Positions 2,575 through 47,415 of a stretch of DNA of 48,128 nucleotides are shown piece after piece (within the stretch, counting starts at the first letter, position 1; each line of letters begins with the position of its first letter). A program made the translations under genes and the position numbers. The stretch lies in IMG/VR virus record IMGVR_UViG_2529292716_000011; one strand, 5' to 3'. Source of the DNA: a virus (lineage: Duplodnaviria > Heunggongvirae > Uroviricota > Caudoviricetes). The notes beneath the pieces were generated by a model. It was not told the DNA's origin and searched no databases. It was given only the letters and a program-made list of their open reading frames with translations.

Positions 2575-2649
2575 GTCCTCTTAGTTAAATGGATATAACG
2601 AGCCCCTCCTAAGGGCTAATTGCAGGTTCGATTCCTGCAGGGGACACCA
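2575..2649 (+). tRNA. argW: tRNA-Arg (anticodon CCU)
   Basis: 75 nt; 7-bp acceptor stem GTCCTCT with AGGGGAC; anticodon stem agccc/gggct with loop ctCCTaa; 3' CCA encoded. Confidence 0.92.
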
Positions 2650-2810: not shown

Positions 2811-3968
2811 ATGCTCACCGTTAAGCAGATTGAAGCAGCAAAGCCGAAAGAAAAACCATACCGCCTTCTCGATGGTAATGGCCTGTACCTTTATGTTCCT
2901 GTATCCGGGAAAAAGGTATGGCAGCTTCGCTACAAGATTGACGGTAAGGAGAAAATCCTGACCGTCGGAAAATATCCGCTTATGACTTTGCAGGAAGCAA
3001 GGGATAAGGCATGGACTGCGAGGAAAGACATCTCGGTTGGCATCGTTCCGGTAAAGGCGAAAAAGGCTTCGTCTAACAACAATTCATTTAGTGCGATTTA
3101 CAAGGAATGGTACGAGCACAAGAAGCAAATCTGGTCAGTAGGCTATGCAACTGAACTTGCCAAAATGTTTGATGACGACATTTTACCCATCATCGGCGGT
3201 CTTGAGATTCAGGATATTGAGCCGATGCAACTGCTGGAAGTAATCCGCAGATTTGAAGATCGCGGTGCAATGGAGCGAGCCAACAAAGCCCGCAGAAGAT
3301 GCGGCGAGGTTTTTCGTTACGCTATTGTCACCGGAAGGGCTAAATATAACCCGGCACCTGACCTTGCAGACGCCATGAAAGGATACCGCAAGAAGAACTT
3401 CCCGTTCCTTCCAGCAGACCAGATGCCTGCATTCAACAAAGCACTGGCAACATTTTCAGGAAGTATCGTATCGCTCATTGCGACCAAAGTTTTACGCTAC
3501 ACAGCCCTAAGAACAAAAGAGCTTCGTTCCATGCTATGGAAGAACGTCGATTTTGAAAACAGGATTATCACCATCGACGCCAGTGTGATGAAGGGACGCA
3601 AAATTCATGTGGTCCCGATGTCAGACCAGGTGGTTGAACTTCTCACTACGCTAAGCTCAATCACCAAACCAGTCTCAGAGTTTGTTTTTGCCGGGCGCAA
3701 CGATAAGAAGAAGCCAATCTGCGAGAACGCGGTATTGCTTGTGATCAAACAAATCGGCTATGAAGGTCTGGAAAGCGGTCACGGATTCAGGCATGAATTC
3801 AGCACGATTATGAACGAGCACGAATGGCCTGCTGACGCTATTGAAGTGCAGCTGGCACATGCCAACGGCGGATCTGTGCGCGGTATTTACAACCATGCTC
3901 AGTATCTCGATAAGCGCAGAGAAATGATGCAGTGGTGGGCGGATTGGCTTGATGAAAAAGTGGAGTAA
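2811..3968 (+). CDS. intS: P4-type tyrosine integrase (IntS-like)
   Basis: Integrase translation immediately downstream of the tRNA 3' end; start chosen at ATG 2811 (MLTVKQIEAAK, 385 aa); the ORF track's upstream start 2775 gives 397 aa. Confidence 0.85.
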   Translation: MLTVKQIEAAKPKEKPYRLLDGNGLYLYVPVSGKKVWQLRYKIDGKEKILTVGKYPLMTLQEARDKAWTARKDISVGIVPVKAKKASSNNNSFSAIYKEWYEHKKQIWSVGYATELAKMFDDDILPIIGGLEIQDIEPMQLLEVIRRFEDRGAMERANKARRRCGEVFRYAIVTGRAKYNPAPDLADAMKGYRKKNFPFLPADQMPAFNKALATFSGSIVSLIATKVLRYTALRTKELRSMLWKNVDFENRIITIDASVMKGRKIHVVPMSDQVVELLTTLSSITKPVSEFVFAGRNDKKKPICENAVLLVIKQIGYEGLESGHGFRHEFSTIMNEHEWPADAIEVQLAHANGGSVRGIYNHAQYLDKRREMMQWWADWLDEKVE

Positions 3969-4114
3969 TCCGGACCGTACTTCTTTATCCAGGCATAAAG
4001 GCTGTGGGTAGTGATATCGAGACGTGTTGCAACGCTGGCAACAGAATAACCGCGATCAACAACCTGTTTGACTGCTTCAGTTTTAAACTCTTCGGGATAA
4101 CGCTTACCGCTCAT
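3969..4114 (-). pseudogene. IS3-family transposase OrfA, N-terminal fragment (truncated)
   Basis: HTH-type OrfA start (ATG at 4112-4114); similarity ends at KKYGPD, after which the frame reads the antisense of the intS 3' end. Confidence 0.6.
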
Positions 4115-4177
4115 GGGCACCTCTCTTTAAGCCATCTTAAATGACTCTGAGGTGTCTGTTAAACCCGTGGCGATTCA

Positions 4178-4630
4178 AAACTGCGTGTTACGTTCGCCCT
4201 GGACTGTTGCGATCGTGAAGCCATAGACTGGGCCGCAAGCACGGGAGGTTACGATAAAGCGACAGTGCAGGATGTCATGTTAGGAGCGATAGAAAAACGC
4301 TTTGGCGATAAAGTACCGGAACAGTCCATCCAGTGGCTGACAGATAACGGTTCAGCGTATAGAGCGCATGAAACACGGCAGTTCGCCAGAGAGTTGAATC
4401 TGGAGCCCTGCACAACGGCAATCAGCAGTCCTCAGAGTAATGGAATGGCAGAAAGGTTCGTGAAAACGATGAAGGAAGACTACATCGCGTTCATGCCGAA
4501 ACCGAATGTAAGAACGGCATTGCATAATCTTGCAGTGGCGATCGAACATTACAATGAAAACCATCCGCACAGTGCGCTGGGTTATCGCTCTCCGCGAGAA
4601 TATCGACGTCAGCGGGTAACGTTAACTTAA
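4178..4630 (+). pseudogene. IS2-group transposase OrfB, C-terminal fragment (no start codon)
   Basis: In-frame similarity to IS2 InsD begins near 4178 ([14 protein letters not shown]) upstream of the first Met at 4265; DDE-domain C-terminus present. Confidence 0.65.
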
Positions 4631-4671: not shown

Positions 4672-5414
4672 TCAGATTCCCTGGTGAGTAAGAATTTTAC
4701 TTTCTGAACTCCTCTGAGAGTATTGACTTGGAGAAACACCAAAATAACGTCTAAATACATAAGTAAAGTATGAGACACTGGCATAACCACAGACCTTAGC
4801 TACTTTACTAATAGGATAACAACGAGTGCTGAGTAAATATTCAGCCATTTGCATCCTCTCATCAAGTATGATCTTACTGAATGATACCCCCTCTTCTTTC
4901 AATTTCATCTTTAGTAAACTTTCGCTGAGATATAATCTTGATGATATATCCTTAAGACGCCATGGTGCAGATAAATCCGTATGAATAATCGTTTTAACTT
5001 TAGCCCTGTGCTTTTCAAACATCCAAACAGAAATACTCCAAATTGTTTTTCAGAAGAAAATGCAGAGAGACATGTAAAAGCAATAGACTCATCAAAAATT
5101 TCTATGTATTCAGCACAGTGATTAGCCCAACTAATTAATCCTTTAATTAAACTGAAGTCAGCAAAGTTTATTTTTAAATAAGATAGATATTCCCTACAAT
5201 CAGAAATATCCCTTAAGTTATTAGCTTTCAAATAGCGACTAATAAACTCAGCGCCAAAATCCGCCACTATCACTCTTTCAGGATATGTCAGGAAAAAATC
5301 TCTAGAGCTAGAGTCGACAAGTACAGATGAACCTCTCTCCAGAAACACACTCTCTTTTCCGAAATAAACATCAAAGGACTCCAAAATCAATATAACTGAA
5401 CATGTAGTTGCCAT
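4672..5414 (-). pseudogene. AraC/XylS-family regulator (AppY/YdeO/GadX-like), frameshifted
   Basis: N-terminal ORF 4911-5423 and C-terminal HTH ORF 4672-5022 overlap in different frames; C-terminus matches the AraC HTH signature (WRLKDISSRLYLSESLLKMKLKEEG...CGYASVSYF); AT-rich. Confidence 0.6.
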
Positions 5415-5444
5415 ATCATCCACCCAATTGGTAATGACTCCAAC

Positions 5445-5948
5445 TTATTGATAGTGTTTTATGTTCAGATAATGCCCGATGACTTTGTCATGCAGCTCCA
5501 CCGATTTTGAGAACGACAGCGACTTCCGTCCCAGCCGTGCCAGGTGCTGCCTCAGATTCAGGTTATGCCGCTCAATTCGCTGCGTATATCGCTTGCTGAT
5601 TACGTGCAGCTTTCCCTTCAGGCGGGATTCATACAGCGGCCAGCCATCCGTCATCCATATCACCACGTCAAAGGGTGACAGCAGGCTCATAAGACGCCCC
5701 AGCGTCGCCATAGTGCGTTCACCGAATACGTGCGCAACAACCGTCTTCCGGAGACTGTCATACGCGTAAAACAGCCAGCGCTGGCGCGATTTAGCCCCGA
5801 CATAGCCCCACTGTTCGTCCATTTCCGCGCAGACGATGACGTCACTGCCCGGCTGTATGCGCGAGGTTACCGACTGCGGCCTGAGTTTTTTAAGTGACGT
5901 AAAATCGTGTTGAGGCCAACGCCCATAATGCGTGCAGTTGCCCGGCAT
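5445..5948 (-). CDS. insB: IS1 InsB frame (expressed as InsAB' by -1 frameshift)
   Basis: 167-aa ORF; A6C slippery motif present upstream. Confidence 0.9.
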
Positions 5949-6142
5949 CCAACGCCATTCATGGCCATATCAATGATTTTCTGGTGCGTACCGGGTTGAG
6001 AAGCGGTGTAAGTGAACTGCAGTTGCCATGTTTTACGGCAGTGAGAGCAGAGATAGCGCTGATGTCCGGCAGTGCTTTTGCCGTTACGCACCACCCCGTC
6101 AGTAGCTGAACAGGAGGGACAGCTGATAGAAACAGAAGCCAC
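5867..6142 (-). CDS. insA: IS1 InsA
   Basis: 91 aa, [16 protein letters not shown]...; zinc-finger/HTH protein of IS1. Confidence 0.92.
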
Positions 6143-6946
6143 TGGAGCACCTCAAAAACACCATCATACACTAAATCAGTAAGTTGGCAGCATCACCAGC
6201 CTTCTTGAGGCTACCACCTGTTTTCAGGTGTCATTCAGACGTGATTTGCCCCAGATTGGGAAAGCACGCTTTTTTCTCAGCTATCGTCCTCTTATTTTGC
6301 CGTTACATTTCTTTTTGCATTCTAATGATTAATTTACAATAATAATATCGGTAATTATTGAGTAATAATAAATTAATTATTGCAAATGTAATTTAATTCC
6401 ATCTTCGCGTTATATTCCAATCTTTAATCTCCGCATGGAACAAGTTGCATGCGTGACTATATTAAGACGACTTATAACCACCAAAACATTTGCTTTGCAA
6501 GCAAAAACAGTGACCATTGACTCTAAGAAAATTCCGATCTATTGTTAGGGTCATCAAAGTTACTTAACAGTATTCCGAAATGAAAATACAAAGCAAGCTA
6601 ATTGTCTTATTAAACATTATTATTGCATTTATATTATTTGAGCTTTTAGCTCAAAAATTTGGTTTGAGTACATTATTTTAAAGCAAGATAAACAATATCG
6701 GGCACTCTAGTTTTTATAATTAACAATTAAACGTCCATAAAATGTTATTTACTTTTCTTCGCTATTGTCATATCTTAATATAGTGGCTTACGCCACTCTA
6801 CTTTCATCACATTTTGTACGTTTATGTACTCGCCATGAAGCTCTTTCATGGCGATTTTTTATTCTTAATCCAAGAACATACTCCCTACCTATAGCAAAAT
6901 CACTTTTTTAACAAAAGAATAACGTATTTAGGTAATCATTACGAAT

Positions 6947-11262: not shown

Positions 11263-14200
11263 TCAACGAATACTGATGCCGGAAGCCGCTTTTTTGGTCA
11301 CAATCACCGTACAGTCGGTGATATTGCCTGCCCCCTGATTGCCTTTCTGGAAAATCTTAAACTCCAGAGTGACGCTACCACCACCACTAGGCATATCAAT
11401 AACTGCACTGTAACTACCGGGAATGGCACCTTTAGTTTCTCTGGATGCGATTAATACGCCGTTTTTGCGAACTTCAAAACCATAACCCGTGTATCGCGTG
11501 CCTCCTGGGTTATTTCCGCTCCCCGGATCGTCATACGCTATACCGTTAAAAATAATGGGCGGAATAATAATCTGGCGGTCAAAGTTATGATCATCGCTTA
11601 TGGTGACTGTAACCGTCCCGTTTGGTGTTTCCGTGTTACCCCACGTACCAGCCTGTTTCGGAAATGATTTGGATACAGCTTTAACGAAGTCACCTCTGAC
11701 CTGAGTCGCCTCCAGCATGCCCTTAATCGTACAGTTTTCATTTACCGTGACATTGTTGAGCGTCCCGGCGTTCGCATTCACACTGCCACTGATATCCGCA
11801 TTTTTAGCGGTCAGCTTTCCGTCCGGAGTCAGGGAAAATGCCGATGGATTTCCACCGCTGGTAATGGTGGGGGCCGTCAGGCGTTTCAGGAACACGTCGT
11901 TCATGAATATCTGATCGCCCTGACCAACAAACATCGGTTTTGTGTTGCCATTCGCAGGATTAACCATCGCAATCCTGTCCGCCGCCAGCAGCACCTGACT
12001 CTGCATGCCGTCAGGGGTGTTCTCAATACCGGCACCAATACCCGCGATATAAAGGCGTCCGTCCTGCATCTGCTGCAGCTTCACAGCCCACATGCTGTTC
12101 AGGTTATTATTTGTATCAACCTGAACCTTCTGTATCTGCTGAATTGCCGCACTCTGGTCTTCCAGTTTCTTATTGACGGTCTGCGTGATTTCATTGCTGA
12201 CATCCGTAATGGACGTCCTGATTTCAGCCAGGTCAGGCGCAAGCTGACCGTTATCAATCTGCGTCCACAGCTCCTGAGCCAGATGGGTTTTCCCTATCTC
12301 GCCTTTGAAAAAATCCAGATAACCGGATGCATCATCACTCGGCTGACCAACAGCCTCCACGAATGCCGATTTGCCAACGGTGTTCACACTGCGGATATAA
12401 AAGTAATAATCATGGCCCGGTTTGATATTGATACTGGCGGCTATCCAGTACAGCGCCGTGCCAAGATAGCGTGCTGTGGTTTCAACCTGCCTGATATCCG
12501 CAATCCGCTTTTCCGAGAACCAGAACTCAAACTGTACCGTCGGATCATAAACCGCAAGATGCGGCGTGGCGGTTATCTGAAAATAGCCCGGCGTCAGCTC
12601 AATCCGCGACAGCGCTGCCGGTGCGGCAATCCGGAACGATACCGACGCCGGATCGCCCTGCTGCCCCCACGCATTTACTGCCCGGACTGTCAGCCTGTAG
12701 TTCCCCAGCGCCAGTTGTGTGAAGCGGTAAGTGGTTTCCGTCGTCCGGGCCGTGCTGACCAGCCGCTCACTGCCGTCATCCGCTGTTACGGTCAGACGGA
12801 GCAGGAAGCTCACGCCCTTCACCACCTTCGGCGTGTCCCAGCGCGCCAGCACCTGATATTCCCCGCTGTCTGCGGTGACTTCGGCAGTCAGGTGCTGCAC
12901 CGCTGGCGGCGTGACACCATTCACCGTGCCGCTCTGGTCGCCGTCAAAGTGCGCCCCGTTATCCACGATGGCTTCTTTTTCCGGCACATGCTGCACGGCG
13001 GTGATGGCATACGTGCCGTCGTCGTTCTCACGGATACTCACGCAGCGGAACAATCGCTGGTGCAGCGTCGGCAGCTTCAGCCCCCACACGCTGTATTCAG
13101 CAACACCGTCAGGAACACGGCTCACTTTTACCTTCACGCCGTCGGTGACGGACTGGACCTCCACGCTGACCGGATTCCCCTGCCCGTCAACCAGGCTTAT
13201 CAGCGTGGTGCCGGAGGATGGCAGCGTGATTTCACGGTCGAGCGTCAGCGTCCGGGTCTGGCTGTTCACCGCCAGCACGCGCCCGCCGGTGCGGATACCG
13301 GCATAGTCATCATCGCAGATTTCAATGACATCGCCCGGTACATGACGAAGCCCTTCAGCACCCACGCTGAAATCCACGGTCTGCGTCTCCAGCAGTTCCG
13401 TTTTAATCAGCCACAGCCCGGCGCGGTGTGCCTGCCCCCGGCTGGTACAGCCAAAGGCATCCATCTTCGTGACGTTACGACCGTAACGGACAATGGCCTG
13501 CGTATCCTCCACAAGCTCTGTCGCCGTCTCCCAGCCGTTATCCGGGTCAATCCAGTTCACCTCAACGGCATTATGGCGGTCTTTCAGGGCGCTGAAACTG
13601 TAGCGGAACGGCGCGCCATCATCCGGCATCACCACATTACTGCGGTTATAGGCCCACACCTTATCCGACTGTCGGTCCTGCACGAACGTCAGCGTCTGCC
13701 CGTTCCATACCGGCATACAGCGCATCGCCGAGCAGAAATCACTGAGCACATCCCACGCCTTGCGCTGTGTGGTCAGCCAGGCATTACAGGTGATGCGCGG
13801 CTCCGTGCTGCCAAAGCCGTCCGGCACCGACTGGTCACAGTACTGGCCGATGACATACAGCGCCCATTTATCCACATCTGCCGCACCAAGACGTTTCCCC
13901 ATGCCATAGCGCGGATGGGTCAGCATATCCCACAGACACCAGGCCATGTTGTTGCTGTATGCCGGTTTTAACGTTCCGTCCCAGATACCGCTGTATTGCC
14001 GCGTCTGCGGATTATAGTTCGACGGCACCTGCAGAATGCGCCCGCGAAGATGATAATTACGGCTCACCTGCTGGCTGCCGAACTGCTCCGAATCCACCTG
14101 TACGCCGACCAGTGCCGTGTTCGGGTAGCACTGTTTCACATCGATGATTTCGGTGTATGACGACCAGAGCGTTTTGTTCTGCAGCTGGTCTGTGGTGCTG

Positions 14201-14760
14201 TCCGGCGTCATTCTGCGCATCCGGATATTAAACGGGCGCGGCGGCAGGTTATCCACCACCACCGAGGCCAGATACTGCGAGGTGGTTTTGCCCTTAATGG
14301 TGATGTCTTTTTCCGTCACCCAGCCACCGTTACGCTGTATCTGAACCAGCAGGCGAACTTCAGACGGATTCCTGTCTCCCTTTGAGGTGGTTTCCACCAG
14401 TGCCTGTACACCGAAGGTAAAACGCAGTCGGTCAATGTTTGCCGACGTGATGGTCCGGGTGATCGGCGTGTCATATTTCACTTCCGTACCCAGCACCGTC
14501 TCGGAGCCGGAGGATTCAAATCCCTCCGGCGGTGACTGCTCCTGCTCACCTGCCCGGAACACCACCGTGACGCCGGAGATGTTGGTATTCCCCTCACTGT
14601 CCAGCACCGGCGTACTGTTCAGCAGCACGCTTTTTAATCCATCCACCGGACCTTCAACCGGCCCTTCGCTGATGGCATCGATCACACTCAGCAGCTGCGT
14701 GGACTTCAGGTTGTCCTTCGCTTCGCGCGGGGTATGCCCCTTACTGCTGCCTTTACCCAT
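11263..14760 (-). CDS. J: host specificity / central tail fiber protein J
   Basis: 1165 aa; lambda J-like throughout, with fibronectin-like repeats and a C-terminal receptor-binding region. Confidence 0.92.
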
Positions 14761-14820
14761 TCGTCATGCTCCATAAACGATAAAACCGCCCGGAGGCGAT
14801 TTCACATAAAACATTTTGCA

Positions 14821-15492
14821 TCAGCGACCAATCACCACAACCTGACCACCGTCCCCTTCGTCTGCCGTGCTGATCTCCTGAGATACCACACGTGACCCCA
14901 CGCGCATTTCACCATACAGAACAGGCATAACATTGCCCTGGGCAACCATGTTATCCAGTGAGGAGAAATAGGTGTTCTGCTTACCGTTATCCGTTGTCTG
15001 TGTGCGGGGAGTTCTGGCTTTCGGTGCCAGCATCTGAGCCACACCGCCGAGCACCATACTGGCACCGAGAGAAAACAGAATGCCGGTCATACCACCGGCA
15101 CCAATGGCAGCCCCCCATGCTGCAAGGGTGGCTCCGGCGGTAAAGAATGATCCGGCAATGGCGGCTGCTCCCAGGACAATCTGGAATACACCACCTGACT
15201 TGGCCCCGGCGACTCTGGGAACAATATGAATCACAGCGCCGTCAGGCAGAGCCTCATGTAACTGTGCCGTTAATCCGGACGTGCTAACATCCTGCCCGGC
15301 AATACGCACCTGATACCAGCCGTCGCTCAGCTTCTGACGAAACGCAGGGAGCTGTGTGGCCATCGCCCGGATGGCTTCGGCACCCGTTTTCACACGAAGG
15401 TCGATGCGGCGGCCAAATCGTTGCAAATCCCCGTAAAGGCAGATGCGTGCCATGCCCGGTGACGCCAGAGGGAGTGTGTGCGTCGCTGCCAT
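14821..15492 (-). CDS. I: tail assembly protein I
   Basis: 223 aa; lambda gpI-like. Confidence 0.92.
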   Translation of the reverse strand: MAATHTLPLASPGMARICLYGDLQRFGRRIDLRVKTGAEAIRAMATQLPAFRQKLSDGWYQVRIAGQDVSTSGLTAQLHEALPDGAVIHIVPRVAGAKSGGVFQIVLGAAAIAGSFFTAGATLAAWGAAIGAGGMTGILFSLGASMVLGGVAQMLAPKARTPRTQTTDNGKQNTYFSSLDNMVAQGNVMPVLYGEMRVGSRVVSQEISTADEGDGGQVVVIGR

Positions 15493-31166: not shown

Positions 31167-31345
31167 ATCATAACGTCCGGTTTCTTCCGTGCCAGAACCG
31201 GACTCGCTGGCATGATGAAATATGTGTACCCGGTAACCCCGGTGTGCATCGTTTTTGATTATTCCCGCACACTCGCGCAGAAGGAGTTCCCCGTCGGGCT
31301 ACGGTCTCTGTTAATACGGGAATACGGCGACGATTGGATTTGCCC

Positions 31346-32251
31346 CTATATTTCCAGACATCTGTTATCACTTAACCCATTACAAGCCCGCTGCCGCAGA
31401 TATTCCCGTGGCGAGCGATAACCCAGCGCACTATGCGGATGCCATTCGTTATAATGCTCGAACGCCTCTGCAAGGTTCTTTGCTGCCGTTAACCCGTCTG
31501 GTTTGGGCATGATACTGATGTAGTCACGCTTTATCGTTTTCACGAAGCTCTCTGCTATTCCGTTACTCTCCGGACTCCGCACCGCCGTGTTCTTCGGTTC
31601 AAGTCCCAACATCCGGGCGAACTGGCGTGTTTCATTAGCCCGGTAGCATGAACCATTATCCGTCAGCCACTCCACTGGAGACGACGGAAGATCGTTGCCG
31701 AAGCGGCGTTCCACCGCTCCCAGCATGACGTCCTGTACTGTTTCACTGTTGAAGCCGCCGGTAGTCACCGCCCAGTGCAGTGCCTCACGATCACAGCAGT
31801 CCAGCGCGAACGTGACACGCAGTCTCTCTCCGTTATCACAGCAGAACTCGAACCCGTCAGAGCACCATCGCTGATTGCTTTCTTTCACGGCCACTCTGCC
31901 TGTATGTGCCCGTTTCGATGGCGGTACAGCAGGTTTTCGCTCAAGCAACAGCGCATTCTGGCGCATGATCCGGTAAACACGTTTGGCATTGATCGCAGGC
32001 ATACCATCAAGTTCTGCCTGTCTGCGAAGCAGCGCCCATACCCGACGATAACCATACGTGGGCAGCTCTCCGATAACATGGTGTATACGGAGAAGCACAT
32101 CCGTATCATCAGTGTGACGACTGCGGCGGCCATCCATCCAGTCATCGGTTCGTCTGAGAATGACGTGCAACTGCGCACGCGACACCCGGAGACAACGGCT
32201 GACTAAGCTTACTCCCCATCCCCGGGCAATAAGGGCGCGTGCGCTATCCAC
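31346..32251 (-). CDS. insD: IS2 transposase InsD
   Basis: 301 aa; DDE transposase. Confidence 0.92.
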
Positions 32252-32574
32252 TTTTTTGCCCGTCCATATTCAACGGCTTCTTTGAGGAGTTCATTTTCCA
32301 TCGTTTTCTTGCCGAGCAGGCGCTGGAGTTCTTTAATCTGCTTCATGGCGGCAGCAAGTTCAGAGGCAGGAACAACCTGTTCTCCGGCGGCCACAGCAGT
32401 AAGACTTCCTTCCTGGTATTGCTTACGCCAGAGAAATAACTGGCTGGCTGCTACACCATGTTGCCGGGCAACGAGGGAGACCGTCATCCCCGGTTCAAAG
32501 CTCTGCTGAACAATTGCGATCTTTTCCTGTGTGGTACGCCGTCTGCGTTTCTCCGGCCCTAAGACATCAATCAT
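32209..32574 (-). CDS. insC: IS2 InsC
   Basis: Start at [13 protein letters not shown] (121 aa). Confidence 0.9.
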
Positions 32575-33090
32575 CTGTACTCCAATGACTAGTCTAAAAA
32601 CTAGTATTAAGACTATCACTTATTTAAGTGATACTGGTTGTCTGGAGATTCAGGGGGCCAGTCTAACGATACAGCGCATGATGTGTCAGGCTTGAATACC
32701 TTTATCCTTTAAAAGGGATATCAGTTAAGTTATCCCGTGTAGGGTATAAGCCATTATCAAAGCCACTCTGTAGGGAATGGCTTTTGTGATGGCATCACTT
32801 ACTCTTTACGCTGCTATCCCACTCATCCCGGAATTTTGATGGGTTATTGAAACCTTCTGCTGACATAACAACTCCTTCAATGTTTGGCTGAAATTGGGAT
32901 GTCTTTCCATCAGTCCGCCACCACAAAGAATCTTTTTTGCCATAAGGCAGGAGGTTCATCTTTCAGTGGCTGCCGGTGTTATTTCCCCACTTACTGGCTT
33001 GGGTTGTTTCGTGGTACTGCCGTTAACTGGTGGCCCAGAATAAATTCCGGTTTCATTATCAAGCCCACCCGTAAATGGGCTTTGTAATGG

Positions 33091-35401: not shown

Positions 35402-36168
35402 GGTGATGCTGCCAACTTACTGATTTAGTGTATGATGGTGTTTTTGAGGTGCTCCAGTGGCTTCTGTTTCTATCAGCTGTCCCTCCTGTTCAGCTACTGA
35501 CGGGGTGGTGCGTAACGGCAAAAGCACTGCCGGACATCAGCGCTATCTCTGCTCTCACTGCCGTAAAACATGGCAACTGCAGTTCACTTACACCGCTTCT
35601 CAACCCGGTACGCACCAGAAAATCATTGATATGGCCATGAATGGCGTTGGATGCCGGGCAACAGCGCGCATTATGGGCGTTGGCCTCAACACGATTTTAC
35701 GTCACTTAAAAACTCAGGCCGCAGTCGGTAACCTCGCGCATACAGCCGGGCAGTGACGTCATCGTCTGCGCGGAAATGGACGAACAGTGGGGCTATGTCG
35801 GGGCTAAATCGCGCCAGCGCTGGCTGTTTTACGCGTATGACAGTCTCCGGAAGACGGTTGTTGCGCACGTATTCGGTGAACGCACTATGGCGACGCTGGG
35901 GCGTCTTATGAGCCTGCTGTCACCCTTTGACGTGGTGATATGGATGACGGATGGCTGGCCGCTGTATGAATCCCGCCTGAAGGGAAAGCTGCACGTAATC
36001 AGCAAGCGATATACGCAGCGAATTGAGCGGCATAACCTGAATCTGAGGCAGCACCTGGCACGGCTGGGACGGAAGTCGCTGTCGTTCTCAAAATCGGTGG
36101 AGCTGCATGACAAAGTCATCGGGCATTATCTGAACATAAAACACTATCAATAAGTTGGAGTCATTACC
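35402..36168 (+). mobile_element. IS1 copy 2 (767 bp) with 8-bp target duplication CCAATTTT; one A missing from the frameshift A-run
   Basis: Terminal repeats present; CCAATTTT at 35394-35401 and 36169-36176; slippery run is A5C where copies 1, 3 and 4 have A6C, so insA reads on to 99 aa. Confidence 0.93.
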
Positions 36169-36558: not shown

Positions 36559-37641
36559 ATGAAAAAATTAACAGTGGCAATTTCTGCTGTAGCTGCATCA
36601 GTACTGATGGCGATGTCTGCTCAGGCAGCTGAAATTTATAATAAAGACAGTAACAAGCTGGATCTGTACGGGAAAGTTAATGCTAAGCACTACTTCTCCT
36701 CTAATGATGCAGATGATGGTGATACTACTTATGCCCGTCTTGGCTTCAAAGGTGAAACCCAAATCAACGATCAACTGACTGGTTTCGGTCAGTGGGAATA
36801 TGAATTCAAAGGCAACCGCGCTGAATCTCAAGGTTCCTCCAAAGATAAAACCCGTCTTGCCTTCGCTGGCCTGAAATTCGGTGACTACGGCTCCATCGAT
36901 TACGGCCGTAACTACGGTGTAGCATACGACATCGGTGCGTGGACTGACGTCCTGCCAGAATTCGGTGGTGACACTTGGACTCAAACAGATGTGTTCATGA
37001 CTGGTCGCACCACTGGTGTTGCAACTTATCGTAACAACGACTTCTTTGGTCTGGTTGATGGTCTGAACTTTGCTGCTCAGTATCAGGGTAAAAATGACCG
37101 CACTGACGTAACTGAAGCTAATGGTGATGGTTTCGGTTTCTCCACTACTTATGAGTATGAAGGATTCGGTGTAGGTGCAACCTATGCTAAATCTGACCGC
37201 ACTAATAATCAGGTTATCTACGGTAACAACAGCCTGAATGCATCTGGTCAAAATGCTGAAGTATGGGCAGCTGGTCTGAAATATGATGCGAACAACATCT
37301 ATCTGGCTACCACCTATTCTGAAACCCAGAACATGACTGTTTTTGGTAATAACCATATTGCCAACAAAGCACAAAACTTCGAAGTAGTTGCACAATATCA
37401 GTTCGACTTCGGTCTGCGTCCGTCCGTTGCTTACCTGCAATCTAAAGGAAAAGACTTGGGTGCGTGGGGTGATCAGGACCTGGTTGAATATATTGATGTA
37501 GGTGCAACCTATTACTTCAACAAAAATATGTCCACTTTTGTTGATTACAAAATCAACCTGATTGATAAGAGCGATTTCACGAAAGCATCTGGCGTTGCTA
37601 CCGATGATATCGTTGCTGTAGGTATGGTTTACCAGTTCTAA
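36559..37641 (+). CDS. nmpC: outer-membrane general porin (NmpC/OmpD-like), intact
   Basis: Start at [23 protein letters not shown]; porin translation with C-terminal aromatic residue; sits between Q and the lysis cassette on the opposite strand as in DLP12. Confidence 0.85.
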
Positions 37642-37771
37642 TTTGATTACTAAAAGATATGTTGCGGGAGGCTTTGCCTCCCCAACATATAAGTGGCTCC
37701 CTCAAGCCACTTCCTTTAGGAGCACAACCTTGCTTCTAACTATATAAACCTTCTGTTATATATTACCCTTT

Positions 37772-37803
37772 ATTTTTGGGGGCGTTGCAACGCCCCATTT
37801 TTA
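37772..37803. terminator. bidirectional rho-independent terminator between porin and Q
   Basis: Perfect palindrome ggggcgttgcaacgcccc flanked by T-runs on both sides. Confidence 0.7.
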
Positions 37804-37829
37804 ATAATTTTTAGTAAACAATTGGCATA

Positions 37830-38228
37830 TTAATTAGAGTTATTAACAACGATATCCATCTCTAACCGGATATCTAATGCCATTAACATCCCTTCAATTA
37901 TGCCCTCAGCCTTCTGTAACCTTTTCCCGATATAACCATCAGAGCAGCAATGCTTACCTGCCAGTGACATGAATGTCATACCGACTACATAATAATCTAC
38001 TAATAAATCGTGCAAATCGCTGTTGTTCTTTTTCAGACGGGCCATGCACCCGCAAATAATCATCGCGTCATCGTCACAACATTGCGGGCGAGATTTTACT
38101 TTTGAAGTAATTAATCCCTTAAAACCGGCGGCAATGGACGACCAGGTCACATCTTCATGATTATTAGCCGCCCACGCTCCCCAACGCTCAAGAACCATCT
38201 GAATATCACGCATCAACTTACTCCACAA
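37830..38228 (-). CDS. Q: late-gene antiterminator Q (phage-82/DLP12 QuuD type)
   Basis: Cys-rich zinc-binding translation ([16 protein letters not shown]); true start may be the internal MRDIQMV. Confidence 0.85.
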
Positions 38229-38435
38229 AAATCAGACCAGAACGCCAATTACAAGCAAAAATCAACAAAACAGTATTAGTTGATTGTTATCTCTGACTTC
38301 ATACTCCTGCTCCTGTCAGGGTTTTGGCGTAATTCTTCAGTATTCGGTAATCGGTCAAAACAGAACCGGGGAAACGATATAAGCGCAGATGCCCCCAGCG
38401 GTGGCGAAGAAGTTCTGCCATATAAAACTCAAACA

Positions 38436-38798
38436 TCATTCATTCCCCATTTCGGTGATGGTCAGTTCCAGCCTCCCACCTTTGGTAACAGGCATCTTCA
38501 CAACGCGGTAATCAACGACCTGAGCATCATCCAGCCAGAAACCTGCTTTGGTGAGTGCGTCAAAAGCGGCTTTTTGCAGATTATCCAGGTCACGGCGACG
38601 GCGATCCGGCATGTGGCACTCAATACGGATTTTCACTGGCATAGCCAGGCCGATATCCAGCATTGCGTTTTTAATGATTCGGGTGACGTTATCGCGGTAT
38701 GCCTGCCCTTCTGCGCTGATGTGTGTGCGCCCGCGATTATGGCGGTAATAGCGGTTATTGCTCGGAGGCCAGGGTAATGTGATGCTGTAGGTATTCAC
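38436..38798 (-). CDS. rusA: Holliday junction resolvase RusA
   Basis: 120 aa; RusA-like. Confidence 0.9.
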
Positions 38799-39085
38799 GC
38801 CTTAATAACCCCCTCTTTCAGCCAGATAACCTGCGTTCTCGCCATACCTTCCAGCGCGCATTCTTTTGCATACTCAGCATCGACAAAATATGTGCGGCGG
38901 TCGATTTCGTCGTGACAGGCAGAACATGCAATGGTGGCAATCAGGTCTGGCGGTTTGATACCGGTACCGCACAATCCAGCCAGCCGGATATGTGCCAGTA
39001 CTGACGTTTCAGGATTGCCATTACATACGCCAGGGATTCTTACCTGGCATTCCCGACCACGCGCTGCTTTTCTCAAATCAGCCAT
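38795..39085 (-). CDS. ybcO: DUF1364 protein (YbcO-like putative nuclease)
   Basis: Cys-rich translation; start taken at [10 protein letters not shown] after an AGGAGG RBS (ORF track start 39124). Confidence 0.75.
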
Positions 39086-39248
39086 GATTCCTCCTTGCTG
39101 CCAGTCGCAACCATTTTTTATCAACCAGGCTAGCGGTATATCCGAGCAGTGTTGGTATTTCGGATGGCTTCAGCTCAGGCTTACGCTTACGACGATTTGA
39201 TACTCTGTAGATGTGCCCGTTCATGACACGAATAAGCGGTGTAGCCAT
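39078..39248 (-). CDS. ninE: NinE-like small protein
   Basis: 56-codon ORF below the ORF-track threshold, translated by hand ([56 protein letters not shown]); overlaps the ninB stop (TAATG) and the ybcO start. Confidence 0.6.
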   Translation of the reverse strand: MATPLIRVMNGHIYRVSNRRKRKPELKPSEIPTLLGYTASLVDKKWLRLAARRNHG

Positions 39249-39703
39249 TACGCCTCCTGCTTATCGCGCAGCTGCTGGTATTCACAGCTCTGCGGAATTG
39301 TCAGGTGGCAGCCGATATTCATCGCCCAGGCTTCGACTTTGCACAGGAAGATGTACATCTCGCCGGTTTCCAGCTCTGACGTATGGCGGAGGGATTGGAC
39401 GGTGGTGACCTCGCCGGACACGACATCTACACGGTCTTTGCTTTCGTAGCCGAGATAGGTGTGCTTCATCGCGTCTTTGACCCACTCAGGCGTAGCGAAG
39501 GTCTTGCCGCGGGCGATGAGATATTCGCTGATCTCCGTGTACCACATGTGGCTGAGCGCGTTCTGCGACAGGCTGCGCTTCTCGCGCCACGGCTTAACCT
39601 GCAGGCGTAAGCATTGCCCGGCATCCAGCAATGGCTGAATCTGCTGGCCGATGGCCGCGAAGTTACCGCGATGGAGTTTGATGCCGTCTACTGGCAGAGT
39701 CAT
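39248..39703 (-). CDS. ninB: NinB/YbcN-family recombination protein
   Basis: 151 aa; NinB-like motif RSLSQNALSHMW. Confidence 0.8.
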   Translation of the reverse strand: MTLPVDGIKLHRGNFAAIGQQIQPLLDAGQCLRLQVKPWREKRSLSQNALSHMWYTEISEYLIARGKTFATPEWVKDAMKHTYLGYESKDRVDVVSGEVTTVQSLRHTSELETGEMYIFLCKVEAWAMNIGCHLTIPQSCEYQQLRDKQEA

Positions 39704-39967
39704 ACGGCCTCCCTAACGGAAACCGCAGAATGCAGAAAATCGCAGGTGCATTTCTGCATCTGTGACAAGGTGATGAGTTCAGATTGTGGTCGCATTTAAG
39801 TCCCCTTAAATGCGCAGAAGTCACCGGAGTTGTTCAGGCTCCGATGAGAGGATTATGGCGGATTGATTACGATAAATCAAAACTATCTTGAAGCCAAAAC
39901 AGTGATCTTCGCTTTAAAAACCTTGTATACTTTCACCTAATCACAGCCAGAACTATGGATCTAACCA

Positions 39968-40345
39968 ATGACCAACAAAGAAAACAAAGATAAATATATT
40001 AACAAGTTCAAGAAAGAGCTTTCAAAATATATACAACCAACTGCTGGAGTGGACATTCAATTATTTAACTCTAAGGATGGTGGTGGTGTAATTAAAGCCA
40101 CTTTGAATAGAAGTGGAAAAAGAAAATCATCTATTGCTGGTAATTTTACTAAATTAGGTGAGGCAATTACCTCGAGTGGGCAGAGGGTTTTTGGTGGTGA
40201 TCTATCAAATGTGAATTTTTACGGAACAAATACGATTTTTGATGGAGATACAATATTTTTAATTAAATCACCTGATTCAGAGGAGTGGTCATCACAAAAA
40301 GCTTCCAAAGACGTAGAGGGCATCGTATTTGGAGGGAAAAAATGA
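39968..40345 (+). CDS. hypothetical soluble protein (125 aa), AT-rich
   Basis: Lys-rich; no signal peptide or TM; no family recognised; opposite strand to the nin genes. Confidence 0.55.
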   Translation: MTNKENKDKYINKFKKELSKYIQPTAGVDIQLFNSKDGGGVIKATLNRSGKRKSSIAGNFTKLGEAITSSGQRVFGGDLSNVNFYGTNTIFDGDTIFLIKSPDSEEWSSQKASKDVEGIVFGGKK

Positions 40346-40427
40346 TTAACATTACTACTAAGGATGCACTCAAGTCAGTGGTGAAGTAAGAGATCTAGTA
40401 ATTCTTCTTGAAACTGATGGAAAAACG

Positions 40428-40769
40428 GTGTCTGATTATTTGCAGCCAATCCCTCCCAAAAAAGATACACACTGGAGCATGATTTTCATTCCGGTAGCAA
40501 TTTATATACTACTTAATCTTGTATACATTATTGCTCACCCATTATTTCCTGAAAAATATCTAAAAACATCAACATCTATATTTCTATTCATTTCCTTCAT
40601 ATTAAGTGCAATAGTAGCATATTTTGTTTTCCATAAGCATAAATCTGCCACTCTATCCATATGCAGCTTAGTGTTCTTAGTGTTAATTGTAGGTGCTAAC
40701 GTAGGGTTTATCAGTTACAGCGACCTAACACAAAAAGCGACGCAAAAATTAGATAGTTTGTCTAAATAA
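40428..40769 (+). CDS. hypothetical small membrane protein (about 3 TM), AT-rich
   Basis: ORF begins at GTG 40428; a better start is ATG 40479 preceded by GGAG; three hydrophobic helices. Confidence 0.5.
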   Translation: MSDYLQPIPPKKDTHWSMIFIPVAIYILLNLVYIIAHPLFPEKYLKTSTSIFLFISFILSAIVAYFVFHKHKSATLSICSLVFLVLIVGANVGFISYSDLTQKATQKLDSLSK

Positions 40770-41208
40770 TTATGTTGCCATGCGAAGTATGCATGGCTGC
40801 ATGTCTGCCTTCCATTTAAAATGGGCTAAGACCTATAACCCTAAATATTATTCTTTATTATCTTCTTTACCACTTCGGTGATGCTGCCAACTTACTGATT
40901 TAGTGTATGATGGTGTTTTTGAGGTGCTCCAGTGGCTTCTGTTTCTATCAGCTGTCCCTCCTGTTCAGCTACTGACGGGGTGGTGCGTAACGGCAAAAGC
41001 ACTGCCGGACATCAGCGCTATCTCTGCTCTCACTGCCGTAAAACATGGCAACTGCAGTTCACTTACACCGCTTCTCAACCCGGTACGCACCAGAAAATCA
41101 TTGATATTGTCAGCGCCAGTGATATAAGACGGTAATTCGCCATTTGGATTGTCCGCTCCACCCAACATGTTGTTTCCTTAAGGTTCTCACACCAGAAAGG
41201 ACATCAAC

Positions 41209-43178
<1,970 letters not shown>

Positions 43179-43259
43179 CGAAAGTATTTAGCGGGCATGA
43201 AAATGGCAAATAACGGTCAAACATCGTGGCGTTGACAATATGGCCATGAATGGCGTTGG

Positions 43260-43763
43260 ATGCCGGGCAACTGCACGCATTATGGGCGTTGGCCTCAACA
43301 CGATTTTACGTCACTTAAAAAACTCAGGCCGCAGTCGGTAACCTCGCGCATACAGCCGGGCAGTGACGTCATCGTCTGCGCGGAAATGGACGAACAGTGG
43401 GGCTATGTCGGGGCTAAATCGCGCCAGCGCTGGCTGTTTTACGCGTATGACAGTCTCCGGAAGACGGTTGTTGCGCACGTATTCGGTGAACGCACTATGG
43501 CGACGCTGGGGCGTCTTATGAGCCTGCTGTCACCCTTTGACGTGGTGATATGGATGACGGATGGCTGGCCGCTGTATGAATCCCGCCTGAAGGGAAAGCT
43601 GCACGTAATCAGCAAGCGATATACGCAGCGAATTGAGCGGCATAACCTGAATCTGAGGCAGCACCTGACACGGCTGGGACGGAAGTCGCTGTCGTTCTCA
43701 AAATCGGTGGAGCTGCATGACAAAGTCATCGGGCATTATCTGAACATAAAACACTATCAATAA
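43260..43763 (+). CDS. insB: IS1 InsB frame of interrupted copy 3
   Basis: 167 aa, one substitution relative to copy 1. Confidence 0.85.
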
Positions 43764-43911
43764 GTTGGAGTCATTACCCGCTTGCAGTAACGGCGAAAGG
43801 GGCAATGACAGCGCTGCCATGTCGACAAGAACTGGAATAGTGAGAAGTAAACGGCGAAGTCGCTCTTATCTCTAAATAGGACGTGAATTTTTTAACGACA
43901 GGTAGGTAATT

Positions 43912-45159
43912 ATGGCACTGAATATTCCATTCAGAAATGCGTACTATCGTTTTGCATCCAGTTACTCATTTCTCTTTTTTATTTCCTGGTCGCTGTGGTG
44001 GTCGTTATACGCTATTTGGCTGAAAGGACATCTAGGGTTGACAGGGACGGAATTAGGTACACTTTATTCGGTCAACCAGTTTACCAGCATTCTATTTATG
44101 ATGTTCTACGGCATCGTTCAGGATAAACTCGGTCTGAAGAAACCGCTCATCTGGTGTATGAGTTTCATCCTGGTCTTGACCGGACCGTTTATGATTTACG
44201 TTTATGAACCGTTACTGCAAAGCAATTTTTCTGTAGGTCTAATTCTGGGAGCGCTCTTTTTTGGCCTGGGGTATCTGGCGGGATGCGGTTTGCTTGACAG
44301 CTTCACCGAAAAAATGGCGCGAAATTTTCATTTCGAATATGGAACAGCGCGCGCCTGGGGATCTTTTGGCTATGCTATTGGCGCGTTCTTTGCCGGCATA
44401 TTTTTTAGTATCAGTCCCCATATCAACTTCTGGTTGGTCTCGCTATTTGGCGCTGTATTTATGATGATCAACATGTGTTTTAAAGATAAGGATCACCAGT
44501 GCGTAGCGGCGGATGCGGGAGGGGTAAAAAAAGAGGATTTTATCGCAGTTTTCAAGGATCGAAACTTCTGGGTTTTCGTCATATTTATTGTGGGGACGTG
44601 GTCTTTCTATAACATTTTTGATCAACAACTTTTTCCTGTCTTTTATGCAGGTTTATTCGAATCACACGATGTAGGAACGCGCCTGTATGGTTATCTCAAC
44701 TCATTCCAGGTGGTACTCGAAGCGCTATGCATGGCGATTATTCCTTTCTTTGTGAATCGGGTAGGGCCAAAAAATGCATTACTTATCGGTGTTGTGATTA
44801 TGGCGTTGCGTATCCTTTCCTGCGCGCTGTTCGTTAACCCCTGGATTATTTCATTAGTGAAGCTGTTACATGCCATTGAGGTTCCACTTTGTGTCATATC
44901 CGTCTTCAAATACAGCGTGGCAAATTTTGATAAGCGCCTGTCGTCGACGATCTTTCTGATTGGTTTTCAAATTGCCAGTTCGCTTGGGATTGTGCTGCTT
45001 TCAACGCCGACTGGGATACTCTTTGACCACGCAGGCTACCAGACAGTTTTCTTCGCAATTTCGGGTATTGTCTGCCTAATGTTGCTATTTGGCATTTTCT
45101 TCCTGAGTAAAAAACGCGAGCAAATAGTTATGGAAACGCCTGTACCTTCAGCAATATAG
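43912..45159 (+). CDS. cscB: sucrose:proton symporter CscB (oligosaccharide/H+ symporter, LacY family)
   Basis: 415 aa, 12-TM MFS permease; translation recognised as CscB from memory; no cscK/cscA/cscR nearby. Confidence 0.8.
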   Translation: MALNIPFRNAYYRFASSYSFLFFISWSLWWSLYAIWLKGHLGLTGTELGTLYSVNQFTSILFMMFYGIVQDKLGLKKPLIWCMSFILVLTGPFMIYVYEPLLQSNFSVGLILGALFFGLGYLAGCGLLDSFTEKMARNFHFEYGTARAWGSFGYAIGAFFAGIFFSISPHINFWLVSLFGAVFMMINMCFKDKDHQCVAADAGGVKKEDFIAVFKDRNFWVFVIFIVGTWSFYNIFDQQLFPVFYAGLFESHDVGTRLYGYLNSFQVVLEALCMAIIPFFVNRVGPKNALLIGVVIMALRILSCALFVNPWIISLVKLLHAIEVPLCVISVFKYSVANFDKRLSSTIFLIGFQIASSLGIVLLSTPTGILFDHAGYQTVFFAISGIVCLMLLFGIFFLSKKREQIVMETPVPSAI

Positions 45160-45514
45160 ACGTAAACTTTTCCGGTTGTTGTCGATATCTCCCTATCCCT
45201 CAACCGGAAAATAATAATACTAAAGTGCTTAGCCCGGCTAATAATCACCTAATCCAAACGCCTCATTCATGTTCTGGTACAGTCGCTCAAATGTACTTCA
45301 GATGCGCGGTTCGCTGATTTCCAGGACATTGTCGTCATTCAGCGACCTGTCCCGTGTATCACGGTCCTGCGAATTCATCAAGGAATGCATTGCGGAGTGA
45401 AGTATCGAGTCACGCCATATTTCGCTATCAGGATTCTGTGTGATGGTTACATCGCCCGGCCCAGGGCTGTTTAGTCATCAGCGCTTTCTGACAGTGCTGA
45501 GATTTCAACCTGTT

Positions 45515-45650
45515 GCAGTAAAAATGAGTAGATATAAGGCAAGTGTGCTGCCAAACCCATCTTTTACGGGGTGCAACCTGTTGCAGTAAAAATGAGTAGA
45601 TATAAGGCAAGTGTGCTGCCAAACCCATCTTTTACGGGGTGAAGGTAGAT
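45515..45650. repeat. perfect tandem duplication, 2 x 68 bp
   Basis: 45515-45582 and 45583-45650 are identical (caacctgttgcagtaaaaatgagtag...ttttacggggtg). Confidence 0.95.
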
Positions 45651-45667
45651 TTCGTTTGAAGGGTATC

Positions 45668-45682
45668 TGGTGTCCCCTGCAG
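45668..45682 (-). other. att-like core: inverted 15-nt copy of the argW 3' end
   Basis: tggtgtcccctgcag is the reverse complement of the last 15 nt of the tRNA (ctgcaggggacacca, through CCA); similarity stops at the tRNA terminus. Confidence 0.6.
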
Positions 45683-45755
45683 ACATCTACTTGAGGCGGC
45701 AGGGGATTGATTGGAATGCTGTTTTTTAGATTTGAAAAATATTTTACCCGCTATT

Positions 45756-45956
45756 TTACCCATTGGCGCGGCTTAAGAGCTTATTTTTGAATTCACAATG
45801 GTCACGATATAACCATCTTGCTCGTCCGTGGATAACTTTGGCTTTAGGCAGGTCGCCGGACTTAATCCGGTCATAGATGAAGGTCTTACCGAAGCCAGTA
45901 TCAGCCATGATGAATTTCAAATCAACCAGTGAATCAGGTTGTAGTTCGTGTTGCAT
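45756..45956 (-). CDS. torI: AlpA/TorI-family excisionase-like DNA-binding protein
   Basis: 66 aa; winged-helix AlpA signature; length, N-terminus and position at the far end of an argW island fit the KplE1 RDF TorI (identity from memory). Confidence 0.6.
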   Translation of the reverse strand: MQHELQPDSLVDLKFIMADTGFGKTFIYDRIKSGDLPKAKVIHGRARWLYRDHCEFKNKLLSRANG

Positions 45957-46078
45957 GAGTGCTATCTCCGAATATGGAATCGAACCTGCAAATCAGGCAA
46001 TAAAAAGCCGCATTGATGCAGCAATGGTAGGTCTGGATATCTTGAGAAATGAACAGGCCTCATCGAGTGTGAGGCGGG

Positions 46079-46423
46079 TTAGTCCTTGCGTAGCTCGCTG
46101 ATTCTTCTGTAAGTCTCTGGTGCTTTGTTCCCGTACGTCTTCATTTCAGACTTCAACAGAGCAACGAGTGAATCCCATTCGTTGAGGATTCCTTTGAATG
46201 CCGGAACGCGCTTTGCAACCTTGTCGAATGAATCTCTGATTTCTGGAATCTGCTCAACAAGTGCAACGCATCGCCGAAAGTCTGCTGCGTCATGGGGAGC
46301 GCCGAAGTGATGACCATAGATATTCTTTTTCAGGCCACATGCGATTGAGGCAAGAGTTGCGCTACTGATGCCGACATCGCCAGTTGATTGCCATTTCAAA
46401 ACCTTCATAGCCAAATCTGACAT
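46079..46423 (-). CDS. hypothetical protein (114 aa)
   Basis: No family recognised. Confidence 0.5.
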   Translation of the reverse strand: MSDLAMKVLKWQSTGDVGISSATLASIACGLKKNIYGHHFGAPHDAADFRRCVALVEQIPEIRDSFDKVAKRVPAFKGILNEWDSLVALLKSEMKTYGNKAPETYRRISELRKD

Positions 46424-46739
46424 TTCTTGTCTCCATAAAACAAAACTCGCCGTAGCGAGCTCAGATAAAAGAAATCCCCGTCAGTGCGAGGATGCTGTTC
46501 ATTGCTGCTATACACTTTTTTGCTCTCAACGTAAGCGGTAGCCCATTCTGTTGGGTTGGTCAGTTGCTTTTAGGAAATGCTCTTTACCCCTTAAACGTCG
46601 GCTGAAAGAGCTAAAATCCATGCAAAAAATTTACGCAATTTTGTGTATTATTGTGCAGTAAGTAATGAGCTATTTTCTGTGCAAAAAATGGATGATAAAT
46701 TTGTCCGGGGCAGGAAAAATTTTATGGGCGCTAAACATG

Positions 46740-47267
46740 AAAAAAGATTCGTATCCTTATTTGATTTGCATGACAGTTTCAGGGCTGATCTTTATTTTCC
46801 TTTTCTTCTGGTGGCGGGCAGATATCTACAGGGTCACGTTTCTTAATCAGAGTATATCCCACTATTACATTCTGTTTAGCATGGGAATAGCTTTTCTGTT
46901 ATCTCTGTTTTGGGTTAAGAAGGGGATAGTAAAACAAAGCGGCTGGAAGAGTCTGTCAGCATACCTTAAGGTTTATGCAGGGATATGCATATTTTCTGGA
47001 TTTTTTCTGATTATACCCCTTACAACACTAACTTATTTTTTGCCTGGAGAGACATCGTCTTATGTTGCACCGTATCGGTATACTTCCGGTAGTTCAAAAA
47101 GTTGTTCTGGAGCTGAGGTGGATGACCCCGATCTACATGAGAATATTCGCATTTGCTATCCGTATGGCAATTATGAGTACGATAATATTATCTATGTTGA
47201 AAAGAAAATTAATACATTAGGTGCGGTAGTGACATATGCACAGACCGCGCGTGATGATACTGAATGA
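46740..47267 (+). CDS. hypothetical membrane protein with Cys-containing C-terminal domain, AT-rich
   Basis: Likely start at MKKDSYPYLICMTVSGL (ORF track start 46665); 3-4 TM segments, then a soluble tail. Confidence 0.45.
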   Translation, partial: KKDSYPYLICMTVSGLIFIFLFFWWRADIYRVTFLNQSISHYYILFSMGIAFLLSLFWVKKGIVKQSGWKSLSAYLKVYAGICIFSGFFLIIPLTTLTYFLPGETSSYVAPYRYTSGSSKSCSGAEVDDPDLHENIRICYPYGNYEYDNIIYVEKKINTLGAVVTYAQTARDDTE

Positions 47268-47415
47268 GATAGTATATAGCGGGCAAGTTTTAGTTAATTT
47301 ATCGAGGTAATATAATTTACCTCGACTCGTTTATTCTGGTATGAATATTTCGCTTTACGATCGATTTTTATCTGATGATATCATGCGGTTTTCATATACT
47401 GACTTACTGTCTTTT

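Follow-up and report, generated by a model that had tools for sequence, protein, structure and literature searches.

Classical gal/chl deletions starting at the end of an IS1 element were reportedly described by Reif and Saedler in 1975, and Panis et al. are said to have described KplE1 (CPS-53), a prophage at argW of Escherichia coli K-12 with IntS and TorI at opposite ends. IS1 generates target-site duplications (TSDs) of 8-9 bp, has a preference for AT-rich DNA, and is prone to local hopping (PMC5009759). Adjacent deletions have been described for IS150 in the E. coli long-term evolution experiment; such deletions grow stepwise with time, and missing TSDs have been attributed either to them or to recombination between IS copies (PMC11708052). 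Inversion between inverted IS copies, or duplicative inversion through intramolecular replicative transposition, is widespread in Shigella genomes (PMC8072062; PMC5009759). Among regulators carried by prophages, PatE (z0321, OI-8) is an AraC-like activator of acid-resistance genes in E. coli O157:H7 (PMC10877973).

The stretch of 48,128 nucleotides analysed here (the window) is, judging from its sequence, a degraded lambdoid KplE1-type prophage at the argW site of Shigella sonnei. It is highly probable that its two IS1 copies lacking a TSD record secondary events driven by IS1, namely adjacent deletions at copy 1, and an inversion together with a 9,254-bp deletion at copies 3 and 4. The copy 1 region resembles the gal/chl and IS150 cases in that an intact IS borders the deletion directly at one end and keeps its other junction, no TSD remains, and the process is stepwise; unlike those cases, the series has been pieced together by comparing natural isolates of the two species, E. 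coli and S. sonnei, and involves both IS ends. As in other Shigella IS inversions, opposite IS1 copies bracket the flipped segment and a 9-bp TSD is split as reverse complements, but this inversion is small (3.6 kb), straddles the prophage attR, and is accompanied by a 9.25-kb deletion at the same IS1. The prophage shares with KplE1 the argW site, a repeated core, intS beside argW, a torI-like gene beside attR, and an integrase beside the tail-fibre end; it differs in possessing a full lambdoid late region with DLP12-like lysis and Q genes, in the inversion of attR and torI, and in the loss of the early region. An AraC-family gene beside copy 1 is nearly identical, in its intact E. coli form, to the O157:H7 gene, whereas in S. 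sonnei it is promoterless and frameshifted.

The prophage and its insertion sequences

The left end of the window reads mlaA-yfdC-tRNA-Arg(argW)-intS, with the tRNA-Arg (CCT) gene argW at 2575-2649. The attL core (2635-2649, plus strand) forms the 3' end of argW, and the attR core (45668-45682, minus strand) has the same 15 bases in inverted orientation. Use of the argW 3' end, the repeated 15-bp core, intS at attL, and a torI-like excisionase at attR together characterize a prophage type that we take to be KplE1 (CPS-53). Both intS and torI are annotated by RefSeq in collinear E. coli loci. After intS, on the minus strand, lies a lambdoid late region (tfa, stf, lom, J, tail and head genes, and terminase), past which are found lysis genes, a porin gene, Q, rusA, and ninB. 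The position of intS beside the tail genes was considered as a rearrangement and rejected, as strain F404, which carries a complete intact prophage, has an identical layout.

Among the complete S. sonnei chromosomes with an exact match to the 200-aa protein adjoining IS1 copy 4 is that of Ss046 (CP000038.1), and S. sonnei CP022672.1 is collinear with window positions 36616-48128 at 99.99% identity. Another S. sonnei genome, CP046286.1 (L030), has a 716-bp deletion corresponding to window positions 3521-4236, which falls in intS and transposase remnants and leaves the IS1 untouched.

Copy 1 was aligned to the window by BLAST, and the terminal repeats were read, to fix the IS1 boundaries. Four IS1 copies are present, copies 1 and 4 in one orientation and copies 2 and 3 in the opposite one, and all four have both of the imperfect terminal inverted repeats of ~23 bp (GGTGATGCTGCCAACTTACTGAT / GGTAATGACTCCAACTTATTGAT). 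The insA and insB' open reading frames are 91 and 167 aa in length, Pfam families PF03811, PF12759, and PF03400 (Zn-ribbon/HTH, DDE_Tnp_IS1) are matched by the corresponding IS1 genes in S. sonnei loci, and the RefSeq label for these transposases is IS1A family. In keeping with an IS1A-like element, copies 1, 3 (with an IS21-like insert removed), and 4 are 768 bp long and copy 2 is 767 bp.

Copy 1 (5430-6197) lies with its GGTAATGAC end on the left side, has insA/insB' on the minus strand, in the direction of the neighbouring AraC-like gene, and lacks a TSD. Copy 2 (35402-36168, plus strand) is a simple insertion with an 8-bp TSD, CCAATTTT, which is confirmed by an 8-bp overlap in the comparison with an IS-free relative (L022 18527-18534). 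Compared with the other copies, it lacks 1 bp at IS1 position 457 and has two SNPs, and its insB' frame is probably broken. Copy 3 (40877-43778, plus strand) is in two parts, 40877-41107 and 43238-43778, and has no outer TSD; it is inactivated by the IS21-like element (istA/istB) inside it (41108-43237, plus strand; 2130 bp, TSD ATAT). Copy 4 (47416-48128, minus strand) is cut by the window end and is present at its full 768 bp in S. sonnei genomes. An IS2 (31335-32665, minus strand; 1331 bp, 5-bp TSD ACGAT) is a simple insertion and served as a control.

An initial annotation of the window had noted that copies 1 and 3 lack TSDs and that copy 2, IS2, and the IS21-like element have clean duplications of 8, 5, and 4 bp, respectively. 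Reading of the flanks confirms both statements, and shifting of the boundaries creates no duplication, the IS1 ends being canonical. TSDs were found at other IS1 insertions, with lengths of 8 bp at copy 2, 9 bp in cscK, and 9 and 10 bp at independent E. coli insertions; the absence of a TSD at copy 1 and at the outer-left flanks of copies 3 and 4 is due to secondary events. Pairing of flanks across all IS1 copies within the window, both directly and as reverse complements, gave no match, so the window alone is insufficient to solve the junctions, and comparison with relatives and with DNA just past the window is needed.

Nested deletions and the AraC-like gene at copy 1

Coordinates at copy 1 are given in the IS1-free locus of strain 23CRST047 (L008), in which the ATG of the AraC-like gene is at 3244. 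In this locus, the DNA upstream of the AraC-like gene continues through 550 bp (3451-4000) into DNA downstream of tfa. The left flank of copy 1 in the window (cacccaatt, 5421-5429), a deletion junction, corresponds to L008 3251-3259, and the right flank (agccttctt, 6198-6206) begins at the junction at L008 4001, such that the two flanks are 741 bp apart in the IS1-free state. At least 30 genomes have the contiguous arrangement as a single piece with 100% coverage, and in 97 the coverage reaches 80% or more.

Four different junction pairs are observed where IS1 is present. In TUM3755 (L002), IS1 replaces the 550 bp, with junctions 3450|4001; in IAL7252 (L005), the junctions are 3450|4119; in the S. 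sonnei window, they are 3259|4001; and in F404 (L001), whose prophage is at argW as in S. sonnei, they are ~3202|4119. The right junction at 4001 is identical in S. sonnei and TUM3755-type E. coli, and agccttctt is possibly the surviving half of the original TSD. The total loss in S. sonnei, 741 bp, exceeds that in TUM3755-type E. coli by 191 bp, and this extra loss is seen only in S. sonnei among the genomes compared. The copy 1 junction is identical in eight of the ten S. sonnei assemblies inspected, and the AraC-like gene, IS1, and tfa occur together (covering 80% or more of a 5-kb query that spans copy 1) in 71 E. coli genomes.

In this series, the IS is intact, one junction is common to relatives, and the other moves into DNA that is contiguous in IS-free relatives. 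Because what each derived state lacks adjoins an IS1 end in its parent state, these are IS-adjacent deletions by definition, and since each such deletion removes one copy of the TSD, copy 1 has none. Apart from the further 191 bp, the deletions predate S. sonnei, because ~71 E. coli genomes have the same arrangement on the agccttctt side of IS1. As reconstructed from these junctions, copy 1 is a local and partly ancient deletion scar that is common to E. coli and was produced from both IS1 ends.

The order of the nested deletions can be proposed from six genomes (L001, L002, L005, L008, L022, and the window). One old IS1 would have inserted in the AT-rich spacer (31-40% G+C) between the PatE-like AraC gene and the tail-fibre assembly gene, at a point somewhere within L008 3451-4009, and would then have undergone repeated end-adjacent deletion, either via intramolecular transposition or via a local hop followed by IS1-IS1 recombination. 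These two routes, one by transposase and the other by host recombination, give the same sequence product. The spread of the module among E. coli and Shigella would have followed a loss of about 550 bp, and the S. sonnei lineage would then have lost a further 191 bp on the AraC side, stopping 15 nt from the ATG. Independently, other lineages would have lost 118 bp on the opposite side and, on the AraC side, ~57 bp more than S. sonnei. A copy 1 IS1 with an intact TSD was not found among 5,426 complete E. coli genomes when queried with the 559 bp lost plus 300 bp of IS1.

Several further features of this neighbourhood were observed. The module of AraC-like gene, IS1, and tfa also occurs at bioA-ybhB (lambda att), where only the last 84 bp of the intS-like integrase gene are kept (window 3885-3968 compared with positions 6001-6084 of the TUM3755 locus); this suggests that the copy at bioA-ybhB derives from an intS-bearing prophage like that at argW. 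The lost 550 bp holds a 62-nt 3' fragment resembling a tRNA-Ser gene (L008 3829-3890), which is absent from the window; ARAGORN detected no intact tRNA in the IS1-free spacer, and the 62 nt are only a fragment. It is located where homology switches from the O157:H7-like AraC module to the lambdoid prophage end, and is probably an old attachment-site remnant joining two elements. In S. sonnei LR213458.1 (L028, 8085-12582), a fimbrial usher/chaperone operon replaces the AraC-intS-argW side next to copy 1, which is a later, strain-specific rearrangement with copy 1 as the rearrangement point.

The PatE/YdeO-like AraC-family gene itself occupies window positions 4672-5414 on the minus strand. Copy 1 had been placed 16 bp upstream of its start, and this is borne out: 15 nt separate the ATG (5414-5412) from the IS1 end, and the first IS1 base is the 16th upstream. 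Relative to the E. coli and O157:H7 copies, one base is missing from a GGGG run near 5003-5006, and the frameshifted product ends before the HTH domain. As read from its frame and flank, the S. sonnei gene is a pseudogene without native upstream DNA; its separation from that DNA by copy 1 had been recognized in the initial annotation and is supported, the frameshift having been missed. Since the gene is frameshifted in the window, the question of its promoter is largely moot. The lost 191 bp held the sole sigma-70-like match upstream of the gene (L008 3307-3278, minus strand, 10/12), which is a consensus match only. No promoter-like site fits in the 15 nt between IS1 and the ATG, and the nearest such site on the same strand is in the right-hand IS1 terminal repeat (6190-6163, minus strand); any transcription of the AraC-like gene would therefore have to be read-through from IS1. 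Among protein families, the intact E. coli protein comes closest to YdeO and GadX, in each case under the cut-off, and the intact E. coli gene differs by one nucleotide in 744 from an AraC-family gene in the 0.31-Mb prophage remnant of O157:H7. The latter is probably PatE (z0321, OI-8), an identification made from its map position and a review (PMC10877973), and not from an accession.

Three further independent IS1 insertions were observed in the upstream or 5' region of the AraC-like gene, in YD786 (L033), D1 (L034), and B-JRPT-4119 (L035). They fall at L008 3226-3736 in the orientation of copy 1, two with clean TSDs of 9-10 bp and one joined to unrelated DNA. Counting the old shared copy, at least four independent IS1 arrivals, all in one orientation, have taken place within ~800 bp (L008 3226-4009), and in two lineages deletion beside the old copy has advanced towards or into the AraC-like gene. 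The region is an IS1 hotspot, which may stem from AT-rich target preference or from selection. That the AT-rich DNA upstream of the PatE-like regulator is a selected, and not a neutral, target of IS1 is quite unlikely; if true, it could mean that an acid-resistance/LEE regulator has repeatedly been selected for rewiring or silencing, its native promoter giving way to read-through from IS1.

Inversion and early-region loss at copies 3 and 4

In E. coli without the prophage, the gene order is dsdA-dsdX'-cscR-cscA-cscK-cscB-argW-yfdC-mlaA. Window positions 43779-45682, which comprise the 3' end of cscK, cscB, and the first 15 nt of argW, align to this reference in the orientation opposite to that of positions 1-2649, and the attR side is therefore inverted relative to attL. 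The inverted segment as a whole (43779-47415) contains the cscK 3' end, cscB, a 68-bp tandem duplication, attR, the torI-like excisionase gene, and two hypothetical genes. The excisionase and hypothetical genes lie beyond attR, as they do in intact relatives, and are followed by copy 4.

The partner junction lies just past the window. In complete S. sonnei genomes, the 768-bp copy 4 is followed by a 9-bp outer flank, CTGCAAGCG, and then, on the minus strand, by the remainder of cscK. On its right side, copy 3 is flanked (43779-43787) by CGCTTGCAG, the exact reverse complement of this outer flank (9/9), a result obtained through the comparison with copy 4 that the initial annotation had proposed. 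In intact cscK, the string cgttgcggag-CGCTTGCAG-taacggcg has a single occurrence. A single-copy 9-mer that is split and inverted in this way indicates that a cscK target duplication of IS1, of which the right flank of copy 3 is one half, has been separated by inversion of 43779-47415. At base level, the arrangement of copies 3 and 4 was the same in each of the five complete S. sonnei genomes examined. Copies 3 and 4 are oppositely oriented around the reversed segment, and the halves of the TSD are reverse complements of one another; read in this way, copy 3 marks one join of a 3.6-kb inversion that took place between IS1 copies of opposite orientation. The IS21-like insertion within copy 3 must postdate the inversion junctions, or at least leave them undisturbed.

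The remaining flanks mark a deletion. The left flank of copy 3 (taccacttc, 40868-40876) is the end of the phage replication gene P, according to relatives, and forms one deletion edge; the left flank of copy 4 (ctgtctttt, 47407-47415) forms the other. Both are found in the intact prophage of E. coli JNEC-KY177 (L022), at 13826 and 4571, respectively, and the 9,254 bp between these positions are missing from the window, with IS1 in their place. The missing early region includes TraR, exo, bet, gam, kil, the immunity genes, O, and P. The copy 4 junction, queried as 250 bp of unique DNA plus 250 bp of IS1, was not found among 5,426 complete E. coli genomes. With attR and torI inverted and the early region gone, normal excision, which joins attL and attR in direct orientation, would no longer be possible.

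The surroundings of the inversion show additional changes. The 68-bp tandem duplication (window 45506-45641, between cscB and attR) is also present in CP022672.1, and is absent from four other aligned complete S. sonnei genomes and from E. coli. Beyond the window (L012-L019, about 11500-15000), an IS3-family element breaks the remaining part of cscK and an IS4-family element lies before cscA, such that IS elements pervade the entire sucrose (csc) locus of S. sonnei.

Alternative explanations, event order, and significance

The initial annotation interpreted the TSD-less copies as products of IS-mediated deletion or inversion and not of simple insertion, a reading supported by the junctions in relatives, and linked both copies to the early-region loss and the inverted att segment. 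The link holds for copy 3, through the 9/9 flank match, and fails for copy 1. For copy 1 to be one end of the copies 3/4 rearrangement, distant flanks would have to have been joined by IS1-IS1 recombination; the missing TSD, the presence of IS1 in both orientations in one prophage, and the junction with an unrelated fimbrial operon in LR213458.1 are all compatible with this, but it is very improbable, given that in syntenic IS1-free E. coli loci (at least 30 genomes) the flanks are natural neighbours, 741 bp apart, as expected of a local deletion and not of a large-rearrangement junction. The right junction is, moreover, common to E. coli with the prophage at bioA-ybhB, and neither flank pairs with the flanks of copies 2-4 in either orientation. 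The first 550-bp loss might instead have been simultaneous with insertion, in which case a TSD was never made. The 5,426 E. coli genomes yielded no intermediate in which this IS1 has an intact TSD, and IS movements coupled to TSD-less deletions have been proposed (PMC11708052); such an origin is nevertheless unlikely, as the long-term evolution cases all resolved into insertion and then adjacent deletion (PMC11708052), and the later nested deletions show that copy 1 does make adjacent deletions. Decay of the TSDs by point mutation, or assembly error at repeats, would explain the absence of TSDs and nothing beyond, and is scarcely conceivable where the flanks have no residual similarity, relatives possess hundreds to thousands of bases that are missing here, and the junctions recur in many independently assembled complete genomes. 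Secondary IS1-driven events are thus the preferred reading of both TSD-less copies.

At copies 3 and 4, these events would comprise an IS1 event in cscK, with CTGCAAGCG as its 9-bp target, an inversion between opposite IS1 copies, and an IS1-adjacent deletion that removed 9,254 bp of the early region, from the TraR side to P, which together would give the present order. What the sequences show directly is where the junctions lie, that the 9-mer is split into inverted halves, that the gene order is reversed, and how much DNA is missing; the order of events, and whether transposase or homologous recombination acted at each join, are inferred. Three events could suffice, for example in either of two ways: insertion into cscK, duplicative inversion into the end of P, and adjacent deletion from the left end of copy 4; or insertion in the early region, adjacent deletion, and duplicative inversion into cscK. 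The data would be fitted equally well by four events that include two separate insertions and homologous recombination. RecA-dependent recombination of this kind, between pre-existing opposite IS1 copies (one inserted in cscK, the other at the early-region deletion) in place of a one-step duplicative inversion, has a probability only a little short of even. The split inverted 9-bp TSD is its expected product, IS-IS recombination is frequent in E. coli (PMC5009759), and Shigella genomes often rearrange at IS copies (PMC8072062). It would, however, require four events against three for the intramolecular transposition routes, and both kinds of route predict identical junctions, the copies being without informative SNPs. 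The S. sonnei IS1 copies are nearly identical and show no chimeric patterns on SNP comparison, and so do not discriminate among the routes.

The behaviour of IS1 at this locus is textbook, and is already known biology in a genome known for IS expansion; current understanding of IS1 and of Shigella genome decay is unchanged by these results. What the prophage does provide is a clean, fully reconstructed example in which a missing TSD has two meanings within a single element, namely creeping local deletion in one place and inversion with large deletion in another, and in which comparison with relatives and reading just past the window tell which meaning applies. For S. sonnei, the outcome is an argW prophage that would have lost the capacity for normal excision, a csc locus broken by IS1, and a PatE-like acid-resistance regulator reduced to a pseudogene.
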